Assembly (NCBI GenBank): GCA_963729605.1
Contig: CAVSNY010000004.1
Coordinates: 224,001-288,000 of the forward strand
Source: an uncultured Gammaproteobacteria bacterium
GTDB taxonomy: Bacteria; Pseudomonadota; Gammaproteobacteria; DRLM01
DNA length: 64,000 nt
Direction of reading: 5' to 3'
Positions 7,141 to 43,590 of this stretch are shown here, piece by piece; positions within the stretch are counted from its first letter, which is position 1, and each line of letters opens with the position of its first letter. Made by a program: the position numbers and the translations under genes. A model generated the notes under the pieces. The model ran no database searches. It was given only the letters and a program-made list of their open reading frames with translations, and was not told where the DNA came from.

Positions 7141-7210
7141 TTAAAGTGCGGGGCGATCAGTCGTGCGGTTCTGATCAAAGGGCTGGGCACGGACATGGAG
7201 GGTCATCACC

Positions 7211-13293: not shown

Positions 13294-13311
13294 CGTTGTA
13301 TCGCCGGCGCG

Positions 13312-14103
13312 TCAATGAAACGCATAAGCGCCGTAGCCGACCACCCGATTGCGCGGACCGGCGGTGTCGCCGGAATTGCGCAGATCCAGGGTCTCGCCGC
13401 GCAGGCCGTGTTGGCGGGCGGCCTCCAGCAGTCCGTTCACCGCCTTGCTGCCGCAGGCGTGCTCGGCGTCGATGCCGCGGGTTTCCAAGGCGCTGATCGC
13501 GTTCGAGGTGGCGCGGTCCATGGCCAGCGCCGTGGCGTAATCGTGATAGTGGCTGAGGTCCGAACTCACGACGATCAAAGTCTCGATGCCGTCCCACAGC
13601 AGGGTTAACACTTCGCTCACTTCCTGGGCGCTGGCTTCGCCCACCACCAAAGGCACCAGCGTGAAGTCTCCCAGCGCCAATTGCAAAAAGGGCAGTTGGA
13701 CTTCCAGCGAATGTTCCCAGGCGTGGGCTTGATCCAATACCTGTACTTGCGATAACGCGGCAAGCAGCCGCACCGCGGATTGATCCACTGTCACGACGCC
13801 CAAGGGCGTGGTGAAACCGCTGGCGCTGCTGGTGGCCAGGCCGTGAAACGGAATGCGATGGGAAGGCCCCAATAACACGACGCGGCGAATGGTGTCGCGA
13901 CCGCTCATCACTTGTGAGTAAGCGCTGGCGGCGACCGGCCCGGAATAGATATAACCGGCATGAGGAACGATGATGGCCTTAGGCGGCGCCGTGCCGCCGG
14001 GATGTGCCGCCAGCATCCCGCTCACCATCTCGCGCAAGAGCGCGCTGTCACCTGGATAAAAACTCCCCGCTACGGCGGGCGCGCGTATGGTCGTCATAAT
14101 CAC
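13312..14103 (-). CDS. amrB: AmmeMemoRadiSam system protein B (MEMO1 family)
   Basis: RAPAVAGSFYP, PHAGYIYSG, GPSH, EHSLEVQLPFLQ, SSDLSHY, VVGYGA. Confidence 0.95.
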   Translation of the reverse strand: MIMTTIRAPAVAGSFYPGDSALLREMVSGMLAAHPGGTAPPKAIIVPHAGYIYSGPVAASAYSQVMSGRDTIRRVVLLGPSHRIPFHGLATSSASGFTTPLGVVTVDQSAVRLLAALSQVQVLDQAHAWEHSLEVQLPFLQLALGDFTLVPLVVGEASAQEVSEVLTLLWDGIETLIVVSSDLSHYHDYATALAMDRATSNAISALETRGIDAEHACGSKAVNGLLEAARQHGLRGETLDLRNSGDTAGPRNRVVGYGAYAFH

Positions 14104-14387
14104 CCTCCGCTGACTCGGATATTACAATGCTTATTGGGCGGTACCCGAGTAAAAATTTCACCTTCGGAATGCTGCCTCCTCGTGACACCGCTACACAGGC
14201 ATGGCATGCAAAGGAAACGTCGCCTTAACAAGCCGATGTATGAGTACTGGTTTATGAGTACTGTGTCAGTCTTTTTTAAAGATAGTACGGCGCGCACGCT
14301 TGGCAAGTTCCGCCGTTGCCGCGCCGGGTTGAACTATACTTGATCTAAGACGTCGCAAAACAGCGGCTGCGATGTCAAGGAGACAAC

Positions 14388-15485
14388 ATGCCGGCCGAAG
14401 TTCCGCGAAGCGTGGTACCCGTCAATTACTGGCATCGTTTGGATGACGGACGCGTGCAATGCGATCTCTGTCCGCGTTTCTGCAAATTGCACGAGGGGCA
14501 GCAGGGTTTGTGTTTCGTGCGCGCGCGCCGGAACGACCGGATGGTGCTCACCAGTTACGGCCGTTCCAGCGGCTATTGCGTCGATCCCATCGAGAAAAAA
14601 CCGCTTTACCATTTTCTGCCGGGCACGCCGGTGCTGTCGTTCGGCACGGCGGGCTGCAACCTCGCCTGCAAATTCTGCCAGAACTGGGACATGAGCAAGG
14701 CCCGCGAGATGGACGTGCTCGCCGACCACGCCCCGCCCGAACTGATTGCCCGCGCCGCACGTGATCTCGGCTGCGGCAGCGTGGCCTACACCTACAACGA
14801 TCCGGTGGTGTTCATGGAATACGCGGTGGACGTGGCCGAGGCCTGCCGCGCCGAGGGCATCAAGTCGGTGGCGGTGACGGCGGGTTACATCACCGAGCAG
14901 GCGCGCGAGGATTTCTTCCGGCACATGGACGCCGCCAACGTGGATTTGAAGGCCTTCACCGAACGGTTTTATCACAAGGTCTGCGGCGGTCATTTGCAAC
15001 CGGTGCTGGATACCTTGATGTATTTAAAACAGCTCGGCTCGGTATGGCTGGAAGTCACCACCTTGCTCATCCCCGGCGAAAACGACGGTGAAGCGGAGCT
15101 GGAAGCGATGAGCGCCTGGATGATGGAATACCTCGGCCCCGACGTGCCCTGGCATTTCAGCGCCTTTCATCCCGATTGGAAGATGCTGGACATACCGTCC
15201 ACGCCCCTGACCGTTTTGCTGCGTGCGCGCGACATCGCCCGTAAACACGGCATGCGTTATGTCTACACCGGCAACGTGCACTACGCGACCGGCGATAGTA
15301 CCTATTGCCATCACTGCGGAGAAAAGGTGATCGGCCGCGATTGGTACGTGCATACCGCGTGGCATCTCACCGACAACGGTCGTTGTTTGACGTGCGGCAC
15401 GCCGCTGCCCGGTGTCTACGCCGGTCCGCCGGGCGAGTGGGGGGCGCGGCGCCGGCCGGTGCGCTTGCAGGATTTCTCCGCCTAA
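14388..15485 (+). CDS. amrS: AmmeMemoRadiSam system radical SAM enzyme
   Basis: CDLCPRFC, DPIEKKPLYHF and CNLACKFCQN (CxxxCxxC); adjacent to amrA/amrB. Confidence 0.95.
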   Translation: MPAEVPRSVVPVNYWHRLDDGRVQCDLCPRFCKLHEGQQGLCFVRARRNDRMVLTSYGRSSGYCVDPIEKKPLYHFLPGTPVLSFGTAGCNLACKFCQNWDMSKAREMDVLADHAPPELIARAARDLGCGSVAYTYNDPVVFMEYAVDVAEACRAEGIKSVAVTAGYITEQAREDFFRHMDAANVDLKAFTERFYHKVCGGHLQPVLDTLMYLKQLGSVWLEVTTLLIPGENDGEAELEAMSAWMMEYLGPDVPWHFSAFHPDWKMLDIPSTPLTVLLRARDIARKHGMRYVYTGNVHYATGDSTYCHHCGEKVIGRDWYVHTAWHLTDNGRCLTCGTPLPGVYAGPPGEWGARRRPVRLQDFSA

Positions 15486-15523
15486 TCGCTGCGCGTGTGA
15501 TGCCGGTGCCGGTTAACGTTTTA

Positions 15524-21560: not shown

Positions 21561-21586
21561 ATATCGGCATCTTTCGCACACCTTAA
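21561..21586 (-). promoter_or_regulatory. Possible sigma-28-type promoter
   Basis: Minus strand TTAAG-N13-GCCGATAT (spacer 1 nt short). Confidence 0.35.
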
Positions 21587-21731
21587 TAGTGTTCGTTGCC
21601 AAACCCGAAGCCCGCCATGCGGCGCGGATAACGGGGGATAATCGCCGCTTGAGAGGTGAGTCTTTTCTTGCCCGGGACCGGCGCGCCGCGACGGCGGCGT
21701 CCATCCCTCCAGCGACAGGCCGCGCGCCGCC

Positions 21732-24700
21732 TTAGCGGGGAATTTTGAGCGGGGAAATCGAGTTTACAAATTCCTCGGCCACGACCGGATGGCCGTACCA
21801 ATGTCCTTGACCTTCGTCGCAACCCAGCGCGGCGAGAAATTGATGTTGTTCTTCGGTCTCGACGCCCTCCGCGATCACCTCGAGATTGAGGCTTTGGCCC
21901 AGCGCGATCACCGCGCGGGCGATCGCCTCGTCATTGGGATCGTGGGGAATGTCGCGGACGAAGGATTTATCGATTTTCAATTTATCCACCGGCAAGCGTT
22001 TCAGGTAACTCAAGGAAGAGTAGCCGGTGCCAAAATCGTCTATGGAAATGGTGACGCCCAACTGCTTGAGCTTGTCGAGCACGTTGACCGTCCAGGCCGT
22101 TTTCTGCATGACCAGGCTCTCGGTGATCTCCAATTCCAGACACTGCGAACCGAGACCGCTGGCTTCCAGCGCGCGACCGACGGTGGCGACGATGTCACCC
22201 CTTTGGAATTGAATACTTGAAAGGTTTACCGCCATCCGCTTCAACGGGAAGCCCGCGTCCAACCAGGTTTTCATCTGTTTGCACGCGCACTGTAATACCC
22301 ACTCGCCGATCGATTCGATCAGTCCGCATTCTTCGGCCAGCGAAATGAAGCGCGACGGCAAAATCAGCCCCATGTCGGGATGCTGCCAGCGGATGAGCGC
22401 TTCCGCGCCGATCAACTCACCGGTTTTCAGCCGGTATTGGGGTTGATAGAAAAGTATTAATTCGTTTTTTTCCAGGGCATGCCGCAGGGCGTTTTCCAAG
22501 GTCAGGCGCTCGAAGGCGGCGGCGGTGAGGGCCGTGGTGTAGAACTGATAGGCGTTACGGCCTTCTTCCTTGGCGCGGTACATCGCCGCGTCCGCGTTCC
22601 TGACCAGGGTGGCGCCTTCTTCACCGTCGCCGGGATAGAGGCTGATGCCGACGCTGACCGTCAGATGTAATTCATGGCCTTTCACTGAAAACGGATTGCC
22701 CACCGCCTCGGTGAGTTTTTTGGCCAAGTGCGCCACATCCTGCGCGTCGTCGATCTTTTCGATCAGAATGATGAATTCGTCGCCGCCCAGCCGCGCCACG
22801 GTGTCTTCCTGGCGGATCAGCCGCGTGATGCGTTTCGCCGTCTCCTTGAGCAGGATGTCGCCGACCGGATGACCGAGGCTGTCGTTGATGTTCTTGAAGC
22901 GGTCGAGATCGAGGAACAAGACCGCGACTTGATGGCCTTCGCGTTCGGCGCGTTTTAACGCGTGTTCAAGCCGGTCGTTGAACAGCAAACGATTAGGCAG
23001 TTCGGTGAGCGGATCATGATGCGCCAAAAAATCCAATTGTTCTTGCGAACGTTTGATCGCCGAGATATCGGAAAATACCGCGACATAATTGATGATGTTG
23101 TTGTCGACGTCGCGTACGACGCTGATGGTCGACCACGCGGGAAAAATCTCGCCGCTTTTCCGCCGGTCCCAGATTTCGCCCTGCCACAGCCCGGCGGTTT
23201 CGATCGCCGCCCACATGGTCCGGTAAAAATCCCGGTCATGCCGATCGGATTTTAAAATGCGCGGATTATTCCCCAGAGCGTCCTGTTCCGCATACCCGGT
23301 GATTTCGGTGAAGGCCTTGTTGACAGCGATAATCCTGTTATTGGCGTCGGTGACCACCACCGCTTCCGCGGTGTTCTTGACCACCGCGGCCAATTGGCGC
23401 AGTTCTTCTTCGGCCCGTTTGCGTTCGGTGATGTCGCGCACGAAGGCGACATGGAGTTCATGATCGCCGAGCCACAGGTGGCGCGCCGACACCTCCACGG
23501 GAAACACCACGCCGTCCTTGCGGCGATGCGTGGTTTCGGTGTGCATGGTGTCGATTTCCTCGGAGTGGTGTTGCGCCCACAACAGTCGCCATTTTTCCAT
23601 GGGGAACAACGGATCGATGTCCCATAGATGCAAGCTCAGCAATTCATCGCGGGTATAGCCGAGCGAACGGCAGGCGGTTTCGTTGACGTAGGAGAAGCCG
23701 CCGTCGCGGGTCATGAAGAAGACCCCTTCCGGGGCATTTTCCATCGAGAAGCGGTACATCTGTAACGCTTCCTCCGCCCGTTTTCGTTCGGTAATGTCGC
23801 GCCACACGGTGTAGATGGCCTGATGGTCGCCGAGGGTGATGGTGGTAAGCAGCACCTCGACCGGAAAGTCTTCGCCGTCGGTGCGGCGGTGCATCCATTC
23901 AAAGCGGTTGCTGCCTTTTTCCAGGGTGGTGCGGATGATTTCCTCGGCCTTTTCGTAGGACGGGCGGCCGTCGGGCTGATGGGCGGGCGAAAGGACCGAA
24001 GGATGCAGCGAGAGGAATTGTTTTTTGTCGGTGGCGCGCATCATCTCGACGGTGGCCTGATTGCAGTCGGTGAATACGCCGTTTTCAAAAAGCAGGATGG
24101 CGTCGGCGGATTTTTCGAAGAGCGAACGGAAGCGGGCTTCGCGTTCTTGGATGGCGGCTTCGGCCTGCTTGCGTTCGCTGATGTCGCGCACGAAGGCGAC
24201 GTGGTGGCCCTTTTCGGGGAGCCAGAGATGTTTCGCCGAGACTTCCACGGGAAATACCGTCCCATCCTTACGGCGATGCAAGGTTTCGGTGAAGACCGTG
24301 TCGGCTTTGGTGGCGATGATCTCGTCCCAGCGTGCCTTTGGGAAAACCGGATCGATGTCCCATAGTTTCAGTCCCATCAGCTCTTGCCGGGTATATCCCA
24401 GCGAGCGGCAGGCCCGGTCGTTCACATAGGAAAATCCGCCGTCGCTGGTCATCAAGAACACCGCGTCCGGCGCGTGCTCCATGAAGAACTGATACATGTG
24501 CAGCGCCTCTTCGGCCTGTTTGCGGTCGGTGATGTCGCGCACGAAGGCGACGTGATAATCGGCATCGACCAGCCAGAGGTGCTTCGCGGAGATTTCGACG
24601 GGGAAGAGACTGCCGTTCTTATGGCGGTGAGTCGCCTCCACCTGGTGGACCGGGACCTTGTTTTTTTGAAACCGTTGCCACATCGCCTCCCAACCGGATT

Positions 24701-24944
24701 CCGAGATGGCGGGGTCGATGTCCCACAGTTTAAGACTCATTAATTCATCGCGGCTGTGGCCGAGCGAGAGGCAGGCCTGTTCATTGACGTAGAAGAACCC
24801 GCCGCCGCTGCTTATGATGAACACGCCTTCCGGCGCATATTCTATGGAAGACAAAAACAGTTGCAGGGTTTCTTCGGTGAGGTTGCGTTCGCCGGCAATC
24901 CACGCCTTGCCGTCGAAATGTAACTGGGGCTCGCTGGACGTCAT
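21732..24944 (-). CDS. Cytoplasmic 5xPAS-GGDEF-EAL protein
   Basis: Five PAS/PAC units ending in RDIT/SDIS motifs; GGDEF, EAL and DDFGTGYSSL intact. Confidence 0.95.
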   Translation of the reverse strand: MTSSEPQLHFDGKAWIAGERNLTEETLQLFLSSIEYAPEGVFIISSGGGFFYVNEQACLSLGHSRDELMSLKLWDIDPAISESGWEAMWQRFQKNKVPVHQVEATHRHKNGSLFPVEISAKHLWLVDADYHVAFVRDITDRKQAEEALHMYQFFMEHAPDAVFLMTSDGGFSYVNDRACRSLGYTRQELMGLKLWDIDPVFPKARWDEIIATKADTVFTETLHRRKDGTVFPVEVSAKHLWLPEKGHHVAFVRDISERKQAEAAIQEREARFRSLFEKSADAILLFENGVFTDCNQATVEMMRATDKKQFLSLHPSVLSPAHQPDGRPSYEKAEEIIRTTLEKGSNRFEWMHRRTDGEDFPVEVLLTTITLGDHQAIYTVWRDITERKRAEEALQMYRFSMENAPEGVFFMTRDGGFSYVNETACRSLGYTRDELLSLHLWDIDPLFPMEKWRLLWAQHHSEEIDTMHTETTHRRKDGVVFPVEVSARHLWLGDHELHVAFVRDITERKRAEEELRQLAAVVKNTAEAVVVTDANNRIIAVNKAFTEITGYAEQDALGNNPRILKSDRHDRDFYRTMWAAIETAGLWQGEIWDRRKSGEIFPAWSTISVVRDVDNNIINYVAVFSDISAIKRSQEQLDFLAHHDPLTELPNRLLFNDRLEHALKRAEREGHQVAVLFLDLDRFKNINDSLGHPVGDILLKETAKRITRLIRQEDTVARLGGDEFIILIEKIDDAQDVAHLAKKLTEAVGNPFSVKGHELHLTVSVGISLYPGDGEEGATLVRNADAAMYRAKEEGRNAYQFYTTALTAAAFERLTLENALRHALEKNELILFYQPQYRLKTGELIGAEALIRWQHPDMGLILPSRFISLAEECGLIESIGEWVLQCACKQMKTWLDAGFPLKRMAVNLSSIQFQRGDIVATVGRALEASGLGSQCLELEITESLVMQKTAWTVNVLDKLKQLGVTISIDDFGTGYSSLSYLKRLPVDKLKIDKSFVRDIPHDPNDEAIARAVIALGQSLNLEVIAEGVETEEQHQFLAALGCDEGQGHWYGHPVVAEEFVNSISPLKIPR

Positions 24945-25435: not shown

Positions 25436-25580
25436 GGAATCTGAGCGATTTATGCGGAGGTCCTGCGGCATATGGATGGGCATTTTCAAGGGTGTCGGTC
25501 ATTGAAAATGAAGGGAAGCGAAAATCACATTTCGCTTCCCTCGCTTTGAAAATCCCAGGATGAAATTATTCGAAGTCTTG
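25436..25580 (+). mobile_element. MITE-like element family A, copy 3 (degenerate ends)
   Basis: CATTTTCAA...CATTGAAAATG, GGGAAGCGAAAAT...TTTCGCTTCCC and GAAAATCCCAGGATGAAATTATTC match copy 1; preceded by CTAG. Confidence 0.65.
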
Positions 25581-27944: not shown

Positions 27945-28040
27945 GGCGGTACTCCTTGAGTTGGGTGTACTAACTATAGGCCACCGATGCGCACCTAAAT
28001 AGTGGACAATCGGCTCTTGTCAGTTGCAGAATCGGCAACA

Positions 28041-28976
28041 ATGGATCAACTGGCCGCCATGAGGATGTTCGTCAGGGTCGCAGAGGCGGGGAGTTTCGCC
28101 GCCGTCGCCGCCCAGCTCGGCCTCGCCCGCTCGGTGATCACCCGCCAGATCGCCGCGCTCGAGGCGCGGCTCGGTACCAAACTCATCGCCCGCAGCACGC
28201 GCCGGCTGGCGCTCACCGCCGCCGGCGCGGCGTACCTGGAAAAATGCCGCGAGATCCTGGCGCTGGTCGAGGAAGCGGAGGGCGATTTGTCCGACGCGCG
28301 GCGGGAAATTCGCGGCAGACTGCGCCTGTCGGTGCCGCTGAGTCTCGGCGTGCGTCATCTGATGGCGATGATCTCCGAATTCACCACCCTCCATCCGCGG
28401 CTGAACGTCGAGATCGATTTCACCGACCGCCGCATCGATTTGATCGCCGAGGGCATGGACCTCGCCGTGCGGGTGGCGGCGGAGCTGGACGAGACCGTGG
28501 TCGCGCGCCGTTTGGGAATCTGCCGTTCGGTGGTGGTGGCGTCGCCCGCCTATCTGGCGCGCCACGGCCGGCCCCGCCATCCGCGCGAATTGATCGACCA
28601 CGAATGTTTCGGTTATGTGCCTACCTTACGTTCGAGCTGGCCGTTCATCATCAATCATAAACTGACCTGGGTGCGCACCCACGGCCGCATCCAGGCCAAC
28701 AACGGCGACGCCCTGCTCGACGCCGCGATCCGCGGTCTCGGAATCACCTATCAGCCGACCTTCATCGCCGCGCAGGCCATCGCGGCGGGACAGGTCGAGC
28801 CCATCCTCACCGACTATCCGCCCATCGAAATGAACCTGTACGCGATCTTTCCCGGTGGGCGTTACGTGCCGCATCCGGTGCGGGCGCTGGTGGATTTTCT
28901 GGCCGAACGGGTCGGCGATCAGCCGCCGTGGGATCGCCATGGACCGGATCGACCCGAACCGCCCGGCCGGCTTTAA
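28041..28976 (+). CDS. LysR-family regulator (CrgA-like)
   Basis: HTH FVRVAEAGSFAAVA...LEARLG..L..RSTRRL; DLIAEGMDLAVR; divergent from the oxidoreductase operon. Confidence 0.95.
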   Translation: MDQLAAMRMFVRVAEAGSFAAVAAQLGLARSVITRQIAALEARLGTKLIARSTRRLALTAAGAAYLEKCREILALVEEAEGDLSDARREIRGRLRLSVPLSLGVRHLMAMISEFTTLHPRLNVEIDFTDRRIDLIAEGMDLAVRVAAELDETVVARRLGICRSVVVASPAYLARHGRPRHPRELIDHECFGYVPTLRSSWPFIINHKLTWVRTHGRIQANNGDALLDAAIRGLGITYQPTFIAAQAIAAGQVEPILTDYPPIEMNLYAIFPGGRYVPHPVRALVDFLAERVGDQPPWDRHGPDRPEPPGRL

Positions 28977-29073
28977 TCTTAAAATTCCCCGCGGCAAGCC
29001 GCGGGGAGCAAGCGATGAGAGATATTTCAAGGAGGGGCGAGTCTGGCGAGGGGCGCGATTCTCCCCCTTGAGC
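28973..29073 (+). repeat. Repeat family B copy
   Basis: TTAATCTTAAAATTCCCCGCGGCAAGCCGCGGGG...GAGGGGCGCGATTCTCCCCCTTGAGC; begins at the LysR stop codon. Confidence 0.65.
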
Positions 29074-29362
29074 TGGCGGCCGTTTCGCGAGGGCATCGAT
29101 GTCCATCGTTTGTAGGGCGGCCATGACGACGGGCTGGCGGCCTTGTTGCGTTACCAGCCGGGCGCCACGGCGCCACTGCATGTCCACGAAGGTATCGAAC
29201 ATATTTTGGCAGTGAGCGGCGGCGCCAGTCCGGCGAGCACGGCCCTTACGCGGTGGCTTCTTGCTGATCAGCCCACCGGCTTCCAGGCATCGCGTCACCA
29301 GCGCCGAGGGCCGCATCATGCCGGCGATCTGGCAACGCCCCGTGCGTTTCTGGATCGACTGA
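29068..29362 (+). pseudogene. ChrR-like cupin pseudogene
   Basis: LSWRPFREGIDVHRL*GGHDDGLAALLRYQPGATAPLHVHEGIEHILAVSG, then out-of-frame LLISPPASRHRVTSAEG..AIWQRPVRF; TAG at 29113-29115 and frameshifts; 5' end replaced by repeat B. Confidence 0.75.
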
Positions 29363-29426
29363 GGGGCTTGGCTTGCCCGGCGCTTCCATCCCCCGCAAAT
29401 CGCAACGAGGACTTCAAGCCGATTAA

Positions 29427-29574
29427 GAAAGCTCTGAATAATGGCATCCTGGAAGTTTCAGAGCACGGGAAGCGAAAATGTGGTTTCGCTGCCCTGCATT
29501 TTCGATGGTTAACGCCGTTGAAAATGGCGGCACATCCGTGTGTCGCGTGCATCTCTGAATAAATCAGAGGTTCC
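29427..29574 (-). mobile_element. MITE-like element family A, copy 4 (148 bp, flanked by TTAA)
   Basis: TTAA at 29423-29426 and 29575-29578; ends GAAAGCTCTGAATAA...AATCAGAGGTTCC. Confidence 0.75.
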
Positions 29575-29670
29575 TTAACGGTCCTCGGGAACTAAATCAT
29601 CGCACGTGGGTGCTCGCGCCCCCGATGCTCAAGTCGATTTTGAGAGAGTTCTCATCATCTTCTCCGCGCT

Positions 29671-29698
29671 TAAAGCTTCAAGACGGCATTGCCGTTAT
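29671..29698 (+). promoter_or_regulatory. Possible sigma-28-type promoter for the kinase-GTPase-ATPase operon
   Basis: TAAAG-N15-GCCGTTAT, ~80 nt upstream of ATG 29781 (spacer 1 nt long, -10 mismatches). Confidence 0.35.
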
Positions 29699-29780
29699 CC
29701 GTCCTGGGCATCACCCGTTTTCCGATGGGACGGGATGCTTAACTGTGGTTAGAAGACGCTGTTAATCCAGGCATATTAGG

Positions 29781-31211
29781 ATGGAGAGCATGGACACCGA
29801 TCAAATAGAAGTTTCATGGGTTGAAGAACTGTTCAGGCTCGGTGCCGACATGGTCCGGGAAAAACCAGCGACGGTATTGGGCCGGCTTCTGTCGCACACC
29901 GTCGCGGGTTTTAAGTCTTCCAGCGGTTGCTTGGCCTTGCTGGGGGAAGATCAGCAGAGTTTGAGTATCGTCGCCGGCGTGGATTTGCCGCCGCATCTGA
30001 TCGGCCACAGCATTCGCCATGGCGAGGGGATCATCGGCCGGGTCGCCGCGTCCCGCCAGCCGCTTTTATTGGAGGGCGATATCTCCAAAGACCCGCGCTA
30101 CAGGGAGGCGGTCGAAAAACGTGAGCGGCCGCGGCCGGCCTCGGCGCTGTGTTTGCCCCTGCAATTGGAGCAGCGCCTGTTCGGCGTGGTGACCCTCAAT
30201 CGGTCCAGCGGCATGTCCTCATTCACCGAAGCGGATGTCCGGCGCGGCCAAGCGGCGGCCAATCTCATGACCCTGGTGATGCATAACGCCAGGTCGCAGG
30301 CGGTCCAGCAGCAGAAAATCCGCGAATTGGAAATATTGAACGGCGAAGTCAGCGCGATGAATCGCCGTCTTGAAAGCGCCCACAGCGAACTGACTCACGC
30401 GGAGAAGATGATCGCGATCGGGCGCCTGGCCGCCGGGGTCGCTCATGGAATCAATAATCCGGCGAGTTATGTCAATTCCAATCTCTATACCCTGCACGGT
30501 TATATGGATGACTTGTTTGCCCTGCTGGATGCCTACGCCGAACTGGACGGCGTATTTCCCGAACACGAGGCGGTGAAGGCGATCCACGCCTTGAAGCAAC
30601 GTATCGATCTCGCTTATCTCAAGGGCGATAGCGCCGATCTGCTCCGGGAATCCCAGGAAGGCGTCGAACGGATACGACTAATCGTGTGCGATCTTCAGCA
30701 ATTTTCCCAAGCGGAAAGCACCGCCTGGCAATGGGTCGATCTGCATCAAGGCATGGAGAGTGCCCTCAATCTCTTCCGCAACGAGATCAAATGCAAGGCC
30801 GACGTCGTCAAGGAATACGGCGATCTGCCGCCGGTGAAATGCATCCCCTCGCAAATCAATCAGGTGTTCATTAGCCTGTTGCTGAACGCGCTGCAGGCCA
30901 TCGAAGGCCAGGGCGTCATCACCGTGCGCAGCGGCGTCGAATCCGCATGGATCTGGTTCGAGGTGCAGGATAACGGTAAAGGTATCGCGCCCGACCATGT
31001 GCATCACATCTTCGAACCCTTCTTTACCACCAATCCGGTCGGCAAGGGTACCGGTCTTGGCTTGTCGGTATCCTGGAATATCGTCTCCAGGCACGGCGGG
31101 TGTTTCGAAGTAAAAAGCGTATTGGGAGAAGGATCCCGATTTCGAGTCTGTTTACCCCGCGCCGGCACCGCGGTCGCTGAAATAGCGAGCGATAAGGCGA
31201 CCCCTTCGTGA
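29781..31211 (+). CDS. GAF-domain cytoplasmic histidine kinase (H-box HGINNP)
   Basis: GAF (GEGIIGRVA, SALCLPL), [38 protein letters not shown]. Confidence 0.92.
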   Translation: MESMDTDQIEVSWVEELFRLGADMVREKPATVLGRLLSHTVAGFKSSSGCLALLGEDQQSLSIVAGVDLPPHLIGHSIRHGEGIIGRVAASRQPLLLEGDISKDPRYREAVEKRERPRPASALCLPLQLEQRLFGVVTLNRSSGMSSFTEADVRRGQAAANLMTLVMHNARSQAVQQQKIRELEILNGEVSAMNRRLESAHSELTHAEKMIAIGRLAAGVAHGINNPASYVNSNLYTLHGYMDDLFALLDAYAELDGVFPEHEAVKAIHALKQRIDLAYLKGDSADLLRESQEGVERIRLIVCDLQQFSQAESTAWQWVDLHQGMESALNLFRNEIKCKADVVKEYGDLPPVKCIPSQINQVFISLLLNALQAIEGQGVITVRSGVESAWIWFEVQDNGKGIAPDHVHHIFEPFFTTNPVGKGTGLGLSVSWNIVSRHGGCFEVKSVLGEGSRFRVCLPRAGTAVAEIASDKATPS

Positions 31212-34144
31212 TGTTCGAGGTGGCGCCGCGCCACTCCCTTCCCAAGGCACTGCGGGGAATCGTGTGCCTGATTTTCATGATCGCCCTGGTCATGGCCGGT
31301 TATTCCATCTGGCTGACCACTTCGATCGTCGATCGCCATGCCGCGCTCTTGAAACTCAGCGAAAGCATGCGCGATCACGCGAACTCGCTTTATCGCAGAC
31401 TGGTCATCGCCGAAAGCGACGGTTATGAATACGCGAGTGTGCTCGCTTTGGTGGACGCAGAGCTTCGGCTGGTGCATATCGGCTTGGAGGGCGGCGGTAC
31501 CGACGAAGTGATCCTGCATGCGGTGCGCAACGCCGATTTGCGCGAGGACTTGAAAAACATCCACGATCTGTTGAGGCCATGGCGAGATCGACTGGCGCTG
31601 CTCGCGCCGGAGAAAAATGCCTTGTACAAGGCGCGGCCGGACGACATTTCCTTATCCGACGATTTGCTGATCCTGGTCGATGCCATGGCGGCGGACGTGC
31701 AAACCGTCATCGTCAAAGACGGCCGCCGCTTGATCTGGACCAATGCGATTACCTTGCTCGTGTTGCTGACCTTGTTCGCCTATATCCTGCTACGCAGGCG
31801 GCGTTATCAGCGGGGTATCGTCACGCGCGCGCAGGAACTCGATGAACTGGTGGGTCGGCGTACCATGGAGTTGCAACAAGCCCTCGACAATAATGCCGAA
31901 CAGATGGCGGCCTTGCGTGTGGCCAATATCCGTATTCTCGCCATGGACGAGGTCTTTAATAAATTGCGGGAGATCGCCCAGCGATTATTCATGGATCGCG
32001 ATTATCCGGCTTTTTATAAAGAGGTGATCGCCGATGTCATGAAGATGACCGACGCCCGCGGCGGCGTGGTGCATTTGCTGGCTGGCGAAGACCGCGCCGC
32101 GGCGGTTTTTTCCCGCAATATGCCTGAAGAGCGGATAAACGATATTGAAGATGCGCTGCGGCGTCGAGATCTTTGGGAACACATTTGCCGCGAGAAAAAA
32201 ATCGTGCGCCTGGATGCGCTGGCGGCGAGTGACGGCATCGCCGAGGACGCGGCGCCGGGTCTGCTGGGCGTGCCCTTGGTGGTCAAGCAGACGGTTTTCG
32301 GAATCCTGTATTTAGTGGAAGGGGGAAAGCCTTTTTCCGATAACGACGAAATCGCCCTCGGCATGTATGCGCGCGAACTCACCCAAGTGCTGGACCATCA
32401 GCGGCTGATGGAGGCGCTGGAACGCGACAACGCCGAGCGCCGCGTCGCCGAAGACAGCCTGGCCCAGGCCCGGGCGCGTATTCAATCGCTGATCGATAAC
32501 AGTCCGGCGCTCATCTATAGTTGCCGGCCCGACGACTTCGCGCTCACTTATATGAGCGACAATATCGAACGTATTTTCGGCGCCCGCGCGGCGGATTTCA
32601 TCGGCGATGCCAGCTTGTGGATGGAACGCGTGCATCCGGACGATTTGCCGATGGTGATGGCCAAGTCGCAGGACTTGATGGCGAACGGGGAAAGGGTCTT
32701 GGAATGCCGGGCGCTGCGTAACGACGGTGAATATTGCTGGATACGCGATAACGCGCGGGTGGTATGCGACGCCGCCGGCCGGCCGGTGGAAATTCTGGGG
32801 GTGGTGACCGACATCACTGAATATAAATTGGCGGAACAGGCGATGCGTACGATGGAAGCCTCCGCGCAGGCGACATTGGATGGATTATCCAGCCGCATCG
32901 TGTTGCTCAACGAGCGTGGCGAAATCATCGCCGTCAACGCGGCGTGGCGCGCCTGCGCCGAAAGTCCGGACAGTCTTTGGTGCGGCGGCTGCGTCGGTAT
33001 CGATTATTTGGAGCTGGCGCGCCAACGGTCCGGCCAAATCGCGATTCAGGACGGGGAAACCGCCGTGGCGCAGGGTCTTTCGGCACTGATGGCGGGACAG
33101 TGCCAAGAGTATTATCTCGAATATCTGCACGCGGCCGTTTCCGGCGCACGCTGGTACGCTTTGCATGCCACGCGTTTTCAAAACGCCGCCGATCTGCGCA
33201 TCGTGATTTCCGAGCAAGACATCACTCAGCGTAAATTGGCCGAGGCCGAACTCCGACAGCAGCATGCCGCTTTGCAAAGCATCAACAGCCGTTTGGAAAT
33301 GGCGAATCTGCAATTGCTGCAATCGGATAAAATGGCGGCGATCGGCCAGTTGGCCGCCGGAGTCGCCCATGAAATCAATAATCCGGTGGGTTACGTCAGT
33401 TCCAATCTGAGCAGCCTGCAACATTATGTCGATGATTTATTCCGGGTGATACGGGCCTATGAAGAGATTGAACCGGCTTTGCCGGAGCAAGGCGAGGCGT
33501 GGCGGGCCCTTCAGGCCGTCAAGAACGAGGTGGATTTGAATTTTCTCATGGAAGACGTCGTGAGTCTGCTTGGTGAATCGCAGGAGGGTGTGGCGCGGGT
33601 GCGGGATATCGTGCAAAACCTCAAGAGTTTTTCCCATGTCGACGAGCAGGTCTGGGAATGGAACGATCTGCATAAGGGATTGGACAGTACTTTGAACATC
33701 GTCCACAACGAACTCAAATACAAGGCGCAGGTGATCAAGGAATACGGCGACCTGCCGCTGATCGAATGCCGTTTGTCCCAGCTCAATCAGGTATTCATGA
33801 ATCTATTGGTCAATGCGGCGCAAGCCATCGAAGAGCGGGGAACCATTTGGATACGGACCGGTGTCGAAGGCGAGACGGTGTGGGTCGAGATCGAGGACAC
33901 CGGCAAGGGTATTTCGCCGGAACAACTGGGCCGGATCTTCGAGCCGTTTTTCACGACTAAACCGGTGGGCAAAGGTACCGGCCTCGGTCTGTCGCTCTCC
34001 TACGACATCGTCGCCAAACACGGCGGGCGTATCGACGTGAAGAGCACGCCGGGCAAAGGCAGCTGCTTTCGCATTTATTTATCCCGCTGCCGTCCGTCCG
34101 GCGAGGAAATCCGCGTGACGGCGCCCGAGGCATTGGAAAGGTGA
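31208..34144 (+). CDS. Membrane histidine kinase: 2TM-GAF-PAS-PAS-HisKA-HATPase
   Basis: Two TMs, GAF (LLGVPL), PAS/PAC (VHPDD, DITE, DITQ), [29 protein letters not shown]. Confidence 0.95.
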
Positions 34145-34248
34145 ATGATGAGTGCCGTTGATCGAGCGCGAACCGGGTATCGCGGGCCGGGGCGGATCGC
34201 GCCGCGCCTCGAGCGGCGCGCTGTCCGTGCGGCGGTCGAGCGCTAGCG

Positions 34249-34911
34249 ATGGCGGAATTCGACGAAGCCGCCCGGCGTTTGACCATCAAGCTGGTTTATT
34301 ACGGCCCGGCCCTCAGCGGCAAGACCACCAATCTCATCCGTCTGCACGACATGCTGCGGCCGGAGTTGAAAGGCGAGATGATGACCTTGGAAACCCGCAA
34401 TGACCGTACCTTGTTTTTCGATCTTCTGCCCTTGGGATTTCGCGCGCCTTCCGGTTTGCTGGTGAAGTTCAAACTGTATACCGTGCCCGGCCAGGTGGCC
34501 CACGACAGCACCCGCAAGGCGGTGTTGTCGCGCGCCGACGGCGTGGTGTTCGTCGCCGATTCCCAGCGTTCGCAAGGCGTGAACAACGCCGAGGCCTTTC
34601 AGAATCTGGCGGACAACGCTCAACGGGTGGGCCTGGATTTCGCCAGCCTGCCCTTGGTGGTGCAGTTCAACAAGCGCGATCTGCTCGACGGCGTCAGCGA
34701 AGAGGAGGTGGCGGCGCGCTGGGCGGCGACGCCGTGGCCGGTGATTTACGCCACCGCCATCAAAGGACTGGGAGTGCGCGAGACCTTTCGCTGCTTATTG
34801 GGCAAGGTGTATGAACTTATCGACCGTCAACATCAACTGGCGACGGCGCATGGCATGAGCGGTACCGCCTTCGTGAAGGCGGCGGAGGAGAGCGATGGCG
34901 AGCGTACGTGA
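34249..34911 (+). CDS. MglA/SofG-like small Ras-like GTPase
   Basis: IKLVYYGPALSGKTTN (G1), DRTLFFD (G2 with Arg finger), YTVPGQV (G3), ADGVVFVADS, QFNKRD (G4), ATA (G5). Confidence 0.92.
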   Translation: MAEFDEAARRLTIKLVYYGPALSGKTTNLIRLHDMLRPELKGEMMTLETRNDRTLFFDLLPLGFRAPSGLLVKFKLYTVPGQVAHDSTRKAVLSRADGVVFVADSQRSQGVNNAEAFQNLADNAQRVGLDFASLPLVVQFNKRDLLDGVSEEEVAARWAATPWPVIYATAIKGLGVRETFRCLLGKVYELIDRQHQLATAHGMSGTAFVKAAEESDGERT

Positions 34912-36142
34912 TGCGGGCGACGGGTTGACCGAGTGGTGTTTCGACCGCGATCTGACCCTCAGTGAATTGCTGACCGGCGTGGACGGCGGGCGTTTGTTCG
35001 ACGCGTTGAAGATCCTGCTCGCGGCGCCGCTGCGCCTGGTGGATACCGAGGATCAGGTGTTGTTGGGGACCGACGTGCCCGCCGCGGCGCGGCGAGTGGT
35101 GATCAAGGGTGAACTGGAGCCGCTCGGTTATCTGGAGGCCCTCGCCCCGGAAGAGGCCTTGCGCGCCGCCGCGCAGTTGCTGGAAATCATTCTGCGCGGC
35201 GCGGCGCGTTATCAAATGGCGTCGGACCTGCATCTCGAGGCGGTGAGCGAGGATTACCGCGAATTGCAACGCCGCCACGACGCCTTGCAGATGTCCGAGG
35301 CGCGCTACCGCGCCTTGACGGCGACCTTGGAACAACAAGTGGCCGCGCAGGTGCAGACCATCGACAACGCCCGCCGCCAGCTCTATCAATCGGAAAAACT
35401 CGCCGCGGTCGGCCAGCTCGCGGCGGGCGTGGCCCATGAAATCAACAATCCCATCGGTTTCATCAGCAGCAACCTGTCCACGGCCCTCGCCTATTTGACC
35501 AAGCTCGATGAATTCGGCGGGCGCCTCGCCGAACACGGGACGGCGCCGTTGCGAACGGCCTGGCGCGAGGCGGATCTGGATTATGTGCTCAAGGACTTTT
35601 CCGCGCTGATGCAAGAATCCTTGGACGGCGCGCGCCGGGTGACGCGCATCGTGGCCGATCTCAAAGGGTTCTCGCGAGTGGATAGCGCCGCGGTCGCGCC
35701 GGCGGACGTCAACGAGATCATCCGCGGGATGTGCAATGTCAGCCGCGGTCAGACCGAGGGTCGGGTCGAGTTGGTATTGGATCTGAGTCCGCTGCCGATA
35801 CTGGAATGTAACGCCGCCGCCTTGGGTCAGGTGTTCTACAATTTACTCAGTAACGCCGCGCAGGCGATGGAGGGCCAGCCGGCGGCTCGTCTGCGGATCG
35901 CCACCGTCCAGCGCGGGGGAGAGATCGTAATCACGCTGGCGGACAACGGCCCCGGCATTCCCGCCGAGGTGTTGCCGCGGATCTTCGATCCGTTCTTCAC
36001 CACCAAGGACGTGGGGCAGGGCACGGGACTCGGCTTGACGGTGTGTACCGATGTCGTGCACGCCCATCGGGGCCGCATCACCGTCCAGAGCCGTGAAAAC
36101 GTGGGGACTGAATTCACGGTGTATTTACCGCTGCCGGGTTGA
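34895..36142 (+). CDS. Cytoplasmic histidine kinase with uncharacterised N-terminal domain and coiled coil
   Basis: [52 protein letters not shown]; overlaps the GTPase stop by 17 nt. Confidence 0.93.
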
Positions 36143-36214
36143 ATCAGCCGGAAACGCGACAGCGGTACCGCACTACGACTACTACGCCAATCGGGAACCG
36201 ATTTCGAGATCGCC

Positions 36215-38458
36215 ATGTCACGTTATGCCTCCTTATTCACCGACGCCTCGGCGCCGCCGCCCGAGTCCAGTCCGCCGGACGTGACCTATCGCATCCTGCT
36301 GGTGGACGACGAGCCCAATGTGCTGCGCGCCCTGCGGCGGGTGTTTCATCGCGAGCATTACGAGATCGTCACCGCCGCCGACGGCAATCAGGCCCTCGCC
36401 CTGCTCGCCGAGCGGGAATTCCAGCTCATCATCTCCGATTACATGATGCCCGGCCTCAACGGCGCCGAGCTGCTGAAACGCGCCAAGAACATGCGGCCCG
36501 ATATGATCCGCATCATGCTCACCGGCCATGCCGACGCCGGCGCGGTGATGGGCGCGGTCAACGAGGGCGCGGTCTATAAATTCATACTCAAACCCTGGAA
36601 CGACGACGATCTGCGGGTGACCACGGCCTTGGCCCTGGAGCAATATGATCTGATCCAGCGCAATCGCCGTTTGCAGAGCGAGAATACCAAGCAGGGCCAA
36701 GAGATCACCCGGCTCAGCAAACTGACGGTCACCAACCGCAGCCAGTTGGCGATCATGCTGCACAAGCGCGGCCTGCTCAACGACGCCCAGGTGCAGGAGC
36801 TGTATAAGCTGTATCAAGTCCGTAAAGAACCTTTGATCAAGCTGCTGTTGGAGAAGGGCTGGGTGGAGGAGCGGGCGATACGCGCCATTCTGCGCAAGGA
36901 CCTGATGGTGGACGAGGTGCAACTCGCCGAGTTCCAGGTCGATCCGGCGGTGACGGTGCTGCTGCCGCGCAGTTTTTGCGAACGGCAATGGGTGATCCCG
37001 CTCAAGCTGCAAGGACGGCGGCTGATGCTGGCGGTCGCCGATCCGATGGACCAGGGCCTGGTGGACGATCTGCGTTTCATCTCCGGTTTGGAGGTGCAGC
37101 CGGTGATGGCCGACGTGGCCGCCATCCAGGCCAAGATCAAGGAGGTCTACGGCGACCGCGACGACACGTCGCTCGTCGAGCTGAATACCGTGGTGGGATC
37201 GAGCGATCCGCTCGACACCATCGAGATCGTGATTGAAGACGAGGAAGACGTCGCGCTGGACGAACTGCTGCGCAGCACCGAGGAGCCGCCGGCCATCCGT
37301 CTAGTAAACGCGGTGATCCTCGAGGCCCTGCGCATGGGGGTGAGCGATATCCACATTCAACCCCGCACCAAAAACGTGGTGGTGCGTTACCGCCTCGACG
37401 GCGTGCTCACCGACAAGATTCAGATACCCCATTATCTCTATCCGTCCCTGGTGTCGCGCATCAAGATCATGGCGGAGCTCAACATCGCCGAGCGGCGGCG
37501 CCCGCAGGACGGCCGCATCGCGGTGAAGACGCCGAACCGTATCGTCGATCTGCGCATCTCGACCTTGCCGACCATCAACGGCGAGAAGATCGTGATGCGT
37601 ATCCTCGACCGCAATTCGGCGATCCATCGCATCGAGGAACTGGGTTTCGCGGCGAACGATCTGGACAAGGTGCTGGCCATGGTCACCCGGCCGCAGGGCA
37701 TCATACTCGCCACCGGTCCCACCGGCAGCGGCAAGACCACCACTTTGTATTCTTTGTTGCAGCACGACGCGACGCCGACCAAGAACTACATCACCATCGA
37801 AGACCCGGTGGAGTATTACCTCGACATGGCCGGCCAGGTCCATGTGCGCGAGAAAATCGTGGATTTCGCGGGGATACTCCGCGCGGTGCTGCGCCAGGAT
37901 CCGGACGTGATACTGCTGGGCGAGATCCGCGACACCGCGACCGCCGACGTGGCGTTTCAAGGCGCGCTCACCGGCCATCTGGTGTATTCGACACTGCACA
38001 CCAATTCCGCGGCGGCCACCATCGCCCGCCTCTTCGACCTCGGTCTCAAGCCTTATGTGGTGGCGTCCGCGCTGGAAGGCATCATCGCCCAACGGCTGGT
38101 GCGGCGCATCTGTCCCGAATGCCGCGAGCCCGCGGCGGCGGAGCCGACCCTGCGGCGCCGGCTGGGTGCGTTGTTCACGGAAGAGCTGACCGCCAGCTTC
38201 CGTGGTCGCGGCTGCGGCCATTGTCACAACAGCGGTTATCGCGGCCGTTTGCCCCTCTACGAGGTCTTGGTGCCCGACGATGAATTGCGCCATCTGATCG
38301 GTAGTGGCGCCACGGTCCTGGATCTGACGCGACTCGCCCGCCGGCGCGGCGCCGGCAGTTTGCTGGAAGACGCCCAGCGCAAGGCCAACGCCGGCTTGAC
38401 CACCTTCGAAGAAGTCCTGCGGGTCTTGGGCGCGCAGTCCCCGGAGACCGTGATCTAG
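36215..38458 (+). CDS. Receiver-domain-fused PilB/GspE-family ATPase
   Basis: REC (VDDE, ISDYMMP, LTG, KPW); N1/MshEN-like region; [14 protein letters not shown], Walker [47 protein letters not shown]...CGHC. Confidence 0.95.
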
Positions 38459-38701
38459 CGCCGCGACATCATTCGCGCACGCCCGGCGGTCCTCTCATTC
38501 GGTTGAATGTCACTGTCCGCATCCCCCTTGGCCAGCGTCGTTCTGGTAAAAATACGCGGACACACCGCGCCTGTGACCGCCGTCGCGACGCCCGCGCCTT
38601 CCGCCGCCGCGATCTTGTATACTCCGGGGGCGTATCAGCAAGGCACCGGCAACGGATGCGAGTGGCGCTCTCGCCACCTCAACACAGGGAAGGATGAACC
38701 T

Positions 38702-39971
38702 ATGTCTTATCGGAAGAGTCTCGAAACAATTCTGGCGGCGGTGCTTGCCGTCTTCTCCACCGGCGCCTGGGGAGACGGTTTCAACGACGTATATGTGATC
38801 GGCGATAGCTTGTCCGACCAGGGCAACTTGTTCAACGCCACGCAGCAGAGCACCGGCAACGGCGTGCCGGCCGACGATCACTATTATCAGGGACGCTTTT
38901 CCAACGGCGAGATTGCCGTGGGCCTGCTGGCGCGGAAACTCGGCGTGCATTTGAAGGCGTCGAGTGAAGGCGGCAACAATTTCGCCTACGGCGGCGCGCG
39001 CACCGACTTACAACGTGGTGGAAGCGGATGTCGTCAAACCCTTTCCGGTGTCTCTGCTGCCGCAGGGCGGCGCCTTTCCCGAGGACGCCTTCCCGTGGAC
39101 CATCAATGGCCAGAGCGCCGTGTTCGCCGCCCGTCCTGTTTCCAACCCCGATGCGCTCTACGTGGTGTTCACGGGTTCGAATGACGTCGCCGATCTGATC
39201 AACATGGTGGCGGCGCACGCGGTGAATCCGGCCTTCCCGGCGGTCGATGTCCATGCCGTGATCGCGAACGTGGTGCAGGATATCGACGCGGCCATCGCCG
39301 CCGCGGTGGCCGCCGGGGCGCGGGACGTGCTGCTGCCCAACGTCCCCAACTTCGGGATCGTGCCCCGCGTCACTCGCTCAGGTCCCGCGGTGGCCGCTCT
39401 CGCGAGTGGCCTGGCGCGGCAATACAACGCGGCCTTCGCCGCCATGCTGGCCGGTTGGACGGGGCGGGTGAACATCATCCCCTTCGATATGTATGCCCTG
39501 TCGTCCGCGGTCGCCGCGCGTCCCGCCGCCTTCGGCTTCAGCAATGCCACGCTACCCTGCTACTCCGGTTTCGTCGCTCCCGGCGGACCCGACGCCACGG
39601 TTTGTCCCACCCCCGCCAGCTACGTGTTCTGGGACGATGAACATCCCACCGCGGCCTTCCATGCCCTGCTGGCGGAACGCCTGTATGCCGCCGTCATGAT
39701 CGATATCTTCGATGACCTCGCCGAGCGCGTGCACGGCGTGCCCGCGCCCAAGGGCGTGACGGCCGCGCTCGCCGCCAAATTGGAGGGCGTCAGACGGCTG
39801 CTGACGGATGCCGGTACCGCCAATGACGCGGGCGCCGTCAACAAGCTTAAAAGTTTCGTCCTCGCGGTGGAGGCTCAGCGGCGCAAAGGCAAGTTGTCCG
39901 CAGCCGAGGCCGCCGTCCTCAGCGAGCGGGCGGAGAAGCTCATCTTTCTAGTGAAGCGGCCGCAGGGTTGA
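38702..39971 (+). pseudogene. Secreted GDSL/SGNH hydrolase, frameshifted at ~39008
   Basis: Signal peptide, GDSLSD, GRFSNG and NFAYGGA in one frame; GSND and FWDDEHP in the next. Removing one T from GACTTACAAC restores T-D-Y-N-V-V. Confidence 0.8.
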
Positions 39972-43500: not shown

Positions 43501-43543
43501 TGCTCTGAAAATTCCAGGATGGAATTATTCAGAGCTTCCTTAA
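43501..43543 (+). repeat. MITE family A right-end fragment plus TTAA
   Basis: TGCTCTGAAAATTCCAGGATGGAATTATTCAGAGCTTCC-TTAA, near-identical to 7102-7144. Confidence 0.75.
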
Positions 43544-43590
43544 TAAATACATGGGCGTAAACGGGGCTGCGATCGCCCCGGCGGCGCTGG

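Follow-up and report, generated by a model that had tools for sequence, protein, structure and literature searches.

A widespread gene cassette linking an MglA-type GTPase to a histidine kinase and a receiver-fused PilB/GspE-type ATPase

Gene layout of the locus

Here we describe a cluster of five genes within a 64,000 nt stretch of DNA (C4:224001-288000, hereafter the window) from the genome of an uncultured gammaproteobacterium, which comprises 3.48 Mb in seven contigs (cited as C2, C3 and so on) and is 94.5% complete. The cluster encodes three histidine kinases (HK1, HK2 and HK3), a small GTPase of the MglA family and an ATPase of the PilB/GspE type with an N-terminal receiver (REC-ATPase). 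We call its core, GTPase > HK3 > REC-ATPase, the trio or cassette core; judged from sequence, it is a widespread cassette of known families in an undescribed arrangement. The genes and domains are as follows.

29781-31211, plus strand: HK1, 476 amino acids (aa), cytoplasmic GAF histidine kinase
31208-34144, plus strand: HK2, 978 aa, membrane sensor kinase
34249-34911, plus strand: MglA-family small GTPase, 220 aa
34895-36142, plus strand: HK3, 415 aa, soluble histidine kinase
34895-35299, plus strand: N-terminal domain of HK3, aa 1-135, predicted GTPase docking site
36215-38458, plus strand: REC-MshEN-T2SSE ATPase, 747 aa, PilB/GspE-type with N-terminal receiver
36290-36619, plus strand: ATPase receiver (~aa 26-135), phosphoacceptor site intact
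36737-36889, plus strand: MshEN_N-like stretch of the ATPase, aa 175-225, with the residues of the cyclic di-GMP (c-di-GMP) motif replaced
37280-38422, plus strand: T2SSE core of the ATPase (aa 356-736), including its catalytic boxes and tetracysteine site

A first-pass annotation of this DNA had described five co-oriented, overlapping or closely spaced genes, and the exact coordinates as well as the Pfam and NCBIfam matches agree with that description. HK1 and HK2 overlap by 4 nt, a 104 nt gap precedes the GTPase gene, the GTPase stop and the HK3 start overlap by 17 nt, and 72 nt separate HK3 from the ATPase gene; overlaps like that between the GTPase and HK3 genes are also present at other cassette loci. 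The annotation had seen no transcription factor, which is true for the five-gene cluster and not for the window, since a gene for a LysR-type transcription factor lies on the same strand ~800 nt 5′ of the cluster (28002-28976). Its claim that MglB, pilin, platform and secretin genes are missing beside the cluster was confirmed by genome searches and by the clustering of cassette loci described below. In the genome search, the T2SSF platform domain matched only at C7:695107-696087 and C2:21432-22407 and nowhere on the cassette contig, secretins were found on C7, C2 and C3, and pilin N-methyl matches were likewise located on contigs other than that of the cassette. The genome holds one pilB-pilC pair (C7) and one type II secretion system (T2SS, on C2); its PilB/GspE-type ATPases number five, against two T2SSF platforms.

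Scans for sigma-70 promoters (2 promoter-like sites versus 3.3 expected) and terminators (13 terminator-like sites versus 10.1 expected) stayed at chance level, and an Rfam scan of the 800 nt leader yielded only a sub-threshold match to anti-hemB (16.3 bits versus 49.5, E 0.57). Public sequencing runs with matches over positions 29000-39000 comprised a mud metagenome labelled RNA-Seq, whose true nature can only be guessed, and, with a small share, a compost run. Contigs from both runs belong to a strain ~90-99% alike that covers the region, and one of these contigs spans 33428-35179.

The trio is conserved across at least three phyla

Among 400 scored genomes of the class, eight including the source genome encode the GTPase (one further genome was unscorable), and in six of the seven other carriers tblastn located the trio in the same order, with identities of 64-73% (GTPase), 46-52% (HK3) and 61-70% (ATPase). 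A scan of genome contigs with an alignment of the GTPase matched at least 600 stretches, at least 578 of which were confirmed, and the best 80 were analysed. The GTPase is at least 52% identical to that of the window at 34 of these 80 loci; an HK3 homologue follows directly after it in 32 of the 34, and a full-length REC-ATPase is encoded in 29 (directly adjacent in 28), while at two more loci the contig stops within the ATPase gene. Among the 46 loci below 52%, a single one (L044, at 51.7%) has a REC-ATPase.

Because the 52% line was picked after seeing the data, we built a tree of the GTPases, from which L047 was left out as too short. The tree contains one clade (SH-aLRT, the Shimodaira-Hasegawa-like approximate likelihood ratio test, 99; stem 0.49) of 35 rows, consisting of all 32 trio-bearing rows plus L041, L046 and L050, in which the trio is broken or missing; MglB-linked MglA genes fall outside it. 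Its members come from the beta- and gammaproteobacteria (Sulfuricella, Azonexus, Rhodoferax, Marinobacter, Stutzerimonas azotifigens and Pseudomonas zhanjiangensis), the Thermodesulfobacteriota (Geomonas, Geobacter, Desulfoluna and Desulforapulum) and the Nitrospirota (Thermodesulfovibrio and Magnetomicrobium). Cultured carriers are Stutzerimonas azotifigens DSM 17556, Marinobacter spp., Geomonas edaphica and Desulfoluna butyratoxydans. The co-conservation of GTPase, kinase and REC-ATPase, which the first-pass annotation had made one test of its proposal, was thus found both in the class carriers and in the tree, and on these comparisons the trio is a conserved cassette across at least three phyla, beyond a chance neighbourhood.

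The notion that the five genes are adjacent by chance and lack a joint function, to which the uninformative promoter and terminator scans offer no obstacle, is therefore hardly credible: it is contradicted for the trio, which at least three phyla retain within one clade of the GTPase, gene ends overlap, and a congener (G407) has the same five-gene layout at protein identities of 72-92% (HK1 76%, HK2 72%, GTPase 90%, HK3 89%, ATPase 92%). Closer to the source the cassette is distributed patchily: three carriers were counted among 12 genomes of the order and two among the four of the genus. A T2SSF platform is present in 12 of 12 cassette genomes searched versus 13 of 14 control genomes; this co-occurrence says little, because platforms are nearly universal.

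Two loci just outside the trio clade, L052 (10001-12044, Bdellovibrionales) and L054 (10001-11880, Polyangia), contain MglA-like genes followed by a kinase 22-26% identical to HK3 and no REC-ATPase; this pattern may reflect an older GTPase-kinase pairing. In an uncultured Geobacter (L042), a gene of 1176 aa (11961-15491) is inserted between HK3 and the REC-ATPase.

An MglA-type GTPase that lacks MglB

The only Pfam match of the GTPase is to Arf (E 8.7e-7). Among solved structures, its best matches are the MglA proteins of Myxococcus xanthus and Thermus thermophilus (E 9e-43 to 2e-42, co-linear over aa 5-185), and the next family, Arl3, follows at E 7e-4. With similarity over the whole G domain and the motifs in place, the protein can be assigned to the MglA family, of which it is the sole member encoded in the genome. 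Across 21 homologues, the residues G19, P20, A21, S23, G24, K25 and T26 of the P-loop GPALSGKT, R53 (the intrinsic arginine of MglA), the NKRD motif at 141-144, and H201 and F208 are invariant, and Q82 is kept in at least 90%. The position of Gly21 in MglA is thereby taken by an invariant Ala in this family; substitutions of G21 lock MglA in its GTP form. The last two invariant residues, H201 and F208, belong to a C-terminal extension of ~25 aa (34801-34908).

A cognate MglB was found neither in the genome nor among 35 clustered cassette sources (34 cassette loci plus the window), and in the search for mglB that the first-pass annotation had proposed, the 94.5% complete genome gave no match at all to Roadblock/LC7 (PF03259) at E <= 0.01, with its pil and gsp genes on other contigs. 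As a control, 13 of 15 open reading frames (ORFs) upstream of canonical MglA genes were Roadblock/LC7 proteins (Robl_LC7). In a survey of the family, MglB is encoded within a few genes for 390 of 449 MglA members (Wuichet and Sogaard-Andersen 2014, PMC4316618).

The N-terminal domain of HK3 is predicted to bind the GTPase

HK3 combines HisKA and HATPase_c domains (Pfam) and has no hydrophobic segment in a hydropathy scan. In 23 orthologues, H181 of the H-box AAGxAHEINNP and the N, G1, F and G2 boxes never vary; the full-length AlphaFold2 (AF2) model reached a pLDDT (the per-residue confidence of the model) of 86, and its kinase core resembles ZraS (Z 23.8). A fold search with the whole of HK3 gave kinase cores only. 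Residues 1-135 matched no Pfam family. Modelled alone (AF2, pLDDT 89.8), they fold into a pair of helices and a sheet of four strands (aa 22-82) ahead of one long helix, an arrangement for which the search returned GAF domains (up to Z 6.5), the C-terminal domains of LAMTOR/Rag proteins (Z 6.3) and the MglB proteins of T. thermophilus (3t1r_A; Z 6.0, root-mean-square deviation 2.6, 77 aligned residues, 22% identity) and M. xanthus (6hjm_A; Z 5.5), none of them reaching Z 8. Matches in the ESM Atlas all scored below 0.9 (hypothetical proteins, PocR at 0.82 and GAF at 0.80) and serve as leads only.

Out of 1.84 billion, 392 representative clusters matched a profile of this domain at E <= 0.001, of which 196 did so at <= 1e-10. 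For the best 150 of these 392, the matched part is at or near the protein N-terminus; 111 of these 150 are kinase-sized (380-526 aa), 98 of them with an H-box, and the remaining 39 are shorter and probably fragments, 17 of which extend to the H-box. The profile thus marks the N-terminal domain of HK3 as family-specific.

When HK3 aa 1-135 and the GTPase were modelled together, the complex scored ipSAE 0.66, 0.64 and 0.64, compared with 0.01 for the best of 3 controls, values that are the model's own confidence. The mark applied to such scores is reached by 58 of 80 solved complexes versus 2 of 110 mismatched pairs, counts that give only a rough calibration here because our own alignments were used. 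The runs share at least 90% of their contacts, with a pLDDT of at least 84 for the partner. The modelled interface is formed by GTPase residues 41-48, 55-63, 71-77 and 87-95 and by HK3 residues 15-19, 73-75 and 101-126. By comparison with MglA, these GTPase residues can be read as switch 1, the interswitch and switch 2, and the model supports binding of the GTPase to the HK3 N-domain in a manner that would depend on its nucleotide state.

Such a contact would also be compatible with the reverse flow of information, in which the HK3 N-domain replaces MglB as a GTPase-activating protein or guanine nucleotide exchange factor, the kinase acts on the GTPase and the true effector is encoded elsewhere. 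MglB is absent, HK3 is the fixed neighbour of the GTPase, both MglB structures are among the top rows of the fold search, the interface covers the switch regions and the Ala at the Gly21 position hints at an altered control of hydrolysis. Set against this, hhalign assigned a probability of only 3.65% to the comparison of the N-domain with 15 proteins encoded in the MglB position, GAF domains scored as high or higher (Z 6.0-6.5) in a search in which no row reached Z 8, and the strict linkage to the REC-ATPase is better explained by a flow from kinase to receiver. We therefore regard HK3 as a substitute for MglB as distinctly improbable.

A receiver-fused ATPase with an intact catalytic core

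The ATPase is composed of a Response_reg domain (27-134, E 2.3e-24), an MshEN domain (235-316) and a T2SSE domain (356-736, E 4.7e-123) according to Pfam. In 25 of 25 orthologues (45-71% identical), the receiver residues D31, D32, D75, T103 and K126 are invariant, as are Walker A (G501-T508), Walker B and the Asp and His boxes of the ATPase core, among them D562, E570, D573, H588 and H595, and the tetracysteine residues C633, C636, C667 and C670. Its closest solved relative is PilB of Geobacter (421 bits), followed by GspE (383 bits), and with the NCBIfam models it scored 536.2 bits for PilB (TIGR02538, cut-off 675.65) and 533.5 bits for GspE (TIGR02533, cut-off 630.25).

The MshEN domain was defined by a 24-residue tandem motif, RLGxx(L/V/I)(L/V/I)xxG(L/V/I)(L/V/I)xxxxLxxxLxxQ, in the account by Wang et al. 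(2016, PMC5013675). The corresponding stretch of the window ATPase reads QLAIML..G.. and PLIKLL..G.., so that the Arg and the first Gly of the motif are replaced in both repeats and its hydrophobic pattern is retained; orthologues from the Thermodesulfobacteriota and Nitrospirota are closer to the motif and keep LG..L(V/I)..G. Binding of c-di-GMP has probably been lost in the source lineage, since the motif Arg and first Gly are replaced, and control of the ATPase would instead be expected through phosphorylation of Asp75.

Two further PilB/GspE-type ATPases of the genome lie away from both T2SSF genes, a GAF-MshEN-T2SSE protein of 814 aa (C2:284092-286536, minus strand) and an MshEN-T2SSE protein of 584 aa (C5:126626-128380, minus strand).

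A short YAxLF peptide precedes the receiver (36215-36290); its F8 is invariant and it lies outside the modelled HK3-GTPase interface. This peptide bears on another arrangement of the same parts, in which the GTPase has its place after the kinases or alongside them and localises or activates the REC-ATPase directly, in the manner of MglA (through SgmX) and SofG towards PilB and PilT in Myxococcus, leaving HK3 as a phosphoryl donor only. Homology to MglA, the co-inheritance of the trio and the conserved peptide with its invariant F8 at the ATPase N-terminus would all suit such direct action, and the C-terminal extension of the GTPase (H201, F208) should be free for another partner because it too is located outside the modelled interface. 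However, the modelled contact with HK3 occupies the switch regions, which are the usual effector surface, and the GTPase gene overlaps HK3 and not the ATPase gene. We consider direct action of the GTPase on the ATPase unlikely. The first-pass annotation had placed the GTPase switch on the ATPase; the linkage of the two stands by virtue of their co-conservation, whereas the complex model places the GTPase on HK3.

Upstream kinases and a recurrent link to c-di-GMP turnover

HK1 carries GAF_2 and HATPase_c domains (Pfam), has no hydrophobic segment and shows, by eye, the H-box AAGVAHGINNP. It is 48% identical over 453 aa to the upstream kinase of locus L016, and on this similarity HK1 is the counterpart of the upstream kinase of related cassettes ('HK-A'). 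HK2 contains GAF_2, PAS_3 and HATPase_c domains, and its H-box was likewise identified by eye in the printed sequence. Hydrophobic segments at aa 10-41 and 175-197 flank a loop of ~130 aa and a third (351-370) lies inside the GAF match, a pattern that fits a membrane sensor with a periplasmic loop. In cassette loci outside the genus, we saw no counterpart of the full HK2 architecture at the corresponding position. The H-box helices of HK1, HK2 and HK3 are near-identical and all three match the same NCBIfam kinase core, within NF038348 'T2SS_HK', with 372.8, 292.9 and 252.5 bits against a cut-off of 450 and over model positions ~277-574 only; the N-terminal half of that model matches an MHYT-domain protein elsewhere in the genome. 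We rejected NF038348 as a link to secretion, given that the kinases score below the cut-off and that only the kinase core is covered.

In the clustering of ORFs from the 35 sources, kinases occurred in 30 and the REC-ATPase in 29. Two further families were each present in 23 of 35, a protein of ~443 aa with a receiver and an HD-GYP domain (REC-HD-GYP, HD_5) and a REC-only protein of ~191 aa. Both genes stand upstream of the GTPase, usually after an HK1-like kinase, so that the general plan of the locus is, on this clustering, kinase, REC-HD-GYP, REC, GTPase, kinase, REC-ATPase. None of the 35 had a linked family of platform, pilin, secretin or Roadblock proteins. HDOD and GGDEF-EAL genes are found at some cassette loci.

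The source genome encodes a REC (158 aa) and REC-HD-GYP (427 aa) pair outside the cluster, at C3:37809-39572. This REC-HD-GYP protein is, by comparison, the regulator of the cassette, because its closest relative in the sister genus genome G292 (62% identity) is encoded directly upstream of the cassette GTPase there. The layout of three kinases and one receiver thus appears to be a genus-level remodelling of the general plan, given that the REC pair is common elsewhere and that the same layout was seen in G407. The convergence of three kinases on a single receiver, as put forward by the first-pass annotation, was accordingly seen in the layout of the source genome and of G407, but it is specific to the genus, and the pair on C3 offers further targets. 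With that pair encoded, the receiver of the ATPase is probably not the sole target, and REC-HD-GYP as a frequent partner would tie the pathway to c-di-GMP turnover. In the window itself, a gene for a PAS(x4-5)-GGDEF-EAL protein is located upstream on the minus strand (21732-24944), with similar proteins at two other cassette loci; on domain content, this neighbour adds to the c-di-GMP theme.

These partners raise the question of whether the REC-ATPase drives a pilus or secretion machine at all, or is a signalling or remodelling ATPase whose output is control of c-di-GMP or of biofilms through the HD-GYP branch, or some other target. The latter reading would account for the lack of a linked platform, pilin or secretin in the 35 sources, for five ATPases facing two platforms and for the GAF-fused and plain MshEN orphan ATPases in the genome, as well as for REC-HD-GYP in 23 of 35 sources and the HDOD and GGDEF-EAL genes nearby. 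On the other side, orthologues show no variation in the catalytic boxes or in the tetracysteine site that is typical of extension ATPases, an N1-like domain (the Pfam MshEN match) is kept, and T2SSF was found in 12 of 12 cassette genomes, a weak point as platforms are nearly universal. A role outside pilus extension or secretion is unlikely in our view.

A proposed G-protein-gated phosphorylation pathway

Taken together, the reading to which we give a slightly better than even chance is a two-component pathway, gated by a G protein, whose phosphorylation target is a PilB-like ATPase. The GTPase would dock through its switch and interswitch surface onto the N-terminal domain and adjoining helix of HK3, and from docking through this surface it would follow that the GTP or GDP state sets the kinase or phosphatase output of HK3. 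All three kinases, with their common H-box type, would transfer phosphate to Asp75 of the ATPase receiver; the paralogous REC and REC-HD-GYP proteins from contig C3 would probably be phosphorylated by them as well. If the ATPase behaves like other receiver-gated ATPases, phosphorylation of the receiver would turn the hexamer on or off. The ATPase may then act on a platform encoded elsewhere, which is the weakest step of the scheme; the only candidates seen in the genome are the type IVa pilus (pilB-pilC, C7) and the T2SS (C2). More tentative, and in our judgement somewhat short of an even chance, is the wider proposition of a bacterial 'G-protein-coupled' two-component system, in which an MglA-type GTPase that has lost MglB uses the N-domain of its own kinase as partner, so that its GTP/GDP state is passed on as His-Asp phosphotransfer that gates a PilB-type motor through a fused receiver.

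Several observations weigh against this pathway. The docking score is a self-estimate of the model with the rough calibration given above. The ATPase falls below both equivalog cut-offs and is 36-43% identical to each of PilB, GspE and the two orphan paralogues of the genome. The output machine is a guess, because no platform, pilin or secretin is linked to the cassette loci. Since the promoter and terminator scans were at chance level, the case for co-transcription is that of gene spacing, and the mud and compost contigs, which may derive from RNA or DNA, cannot serve as evidence of a transcript. The REC and REC-HD-GYP branch can apparently work without the trio, because the pair persists in the same-genus genomes G112 and G406, both without the cassette. 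Finally, the cassette is dispensable, as only three of the 12 genomes from the order and eight of the 400 scored for the class carry it.

Comparison with known systems

MglA-GTP stimulates type IVa pili through SgmX, and the orphan paralogue SofG of M. xanthus has an N-terminal extension and works with a bactofilin. The window GTPase aligns with MglA from residue 5 and is therefore without such an extension, a distinction from SofG that is drawn from descriptions of the latter. The cassette resembles the MglA/MglB module of M. xanthus and T. thermophilus in the homology of the GTPase to MglA, the retention of Arg53 and Gln82 and the linkage of a small GTPase to a PilB-type ATPase; it differs in having no MglB or Roadblock protein, an Ala at the Gly21 position, a C-terminal extension and, as fixed partners, a histidine kinase and a receiver-fused ATPase, and in forming a clade of its own. 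As related in the text of the 2014 survey, MglA and SofG act on PilB/PilT in Myxococcus (PMC4316618), and SofG is thereby an MglA-family GTPase without MglB that is tied to PilB-type ATPases, like the one described here.

The same survey text describes the actinobacterial conservon, in which an MglA-family GTPase is likewise encoded with a histidine kinase and thought to act on it (PMC4316618). The conservon consists of the kinase CvnA, the Roadblock protein CvnB, CvnC and the GTPase CvnD and has no response regulator, whereas the cassette is without Roadblock and CvnC and its fixed third gene is the receiver-fused ATPase.

MshE- and PilB-type ATPases regulated by c-di-GMP belong to the same family and share the N-terminal MshEN region, but both repeats of the window protein have other residues in place of the motif Arg and first Gly, as in the non-binding XpsE mentioned in the text on MshEN (PMC5013675). 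Fusions of MshEN to REC are on record there too, with mention of the response regulator Bd2402 (Wang et al. 2016, PMC5013675). His-Asp signalling ends at the activity or localisation of PilB also in PilS-PilR, in Pil-Chp with PilG/PilH and in PdeK-PdeR/FimX/PilZ/PilB, as outlined in the text of a PilB review of 2024 (PMC11656802); in these systems the receiver resides on a separate regulator or adaptor, while here it is fused to the ATPase. The available portion of that review (PMC11656802) contains nothing on a REC-fused PilB and no mention of MglA or SofG. In the portion of the 2014 survey at hand, 59 MglA genes without MglB were set aside and no such neighbourhood was described (Wuichet and Sogaard-Andersen 2014, PMC4316618). 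Our literature search found no paper on the cassette, in keeping with the first-pass annotation, which knew of no characterised example of this architecture; the supplementary tables of PMC4316618 and PMC5013675 may list these genes.

Flanking features

A dispersed repeat of ~158 bp occurs in the 800 nt leader (29423-29578) and elsewhere in the window at 25447-25571 (inverted), 6986-7144 and 43501-43544. It has 62 blastn matches genome-wide and many copies in the congener G112, matches no Rfam family and looks like an element of the repetitive extragenic palindromic (REP) or miniature inverted-repeat transposable element (MITE) type. As a mobile-element boundary of the cassette it was rejected, there being 62 blastn matches across the genome and none at the right edge.

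Directly 3′ of the ATPase, a GDSL-lipase gene (38507-39971, plus strand) is split across two overlapping frames, the first (38507-39184) matching the N-terminal portion of the Pfam model and the second (38964-39971) what remains of it; it is a single frame in the congener G407. Either a frameshift or a faulty assembly of the source genome explains the split. The gspF gene of the T2SS (C2:21432-22407), beside gspE, likewise has its T2SSF matches in two frames, with the change near 21580-21590. Because gspF is a second apparent frameshift in the assembly, a sequencing error is favoured over decay.

Significance

The cassette bears on how MglA-type GTPases act outside Myxococcus and on how motors of the PilB family are switched. 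If the wider proposition of a 'G-protein-coupled' two-component system is true, receiver phosphorylation under the control of a GTPase would constitute a third way, undescribed to date, to control pilus- and secretion-type motors, alongside c-di-GMP and adaptor proteins. The cultured carriers provide a direct genetic and biochemical handle on these questions about the GTPase and the motor. The cassette would also give a function to the numerous 'orphan' PilB/GspE paralogues that outnumber the pilus platforms.

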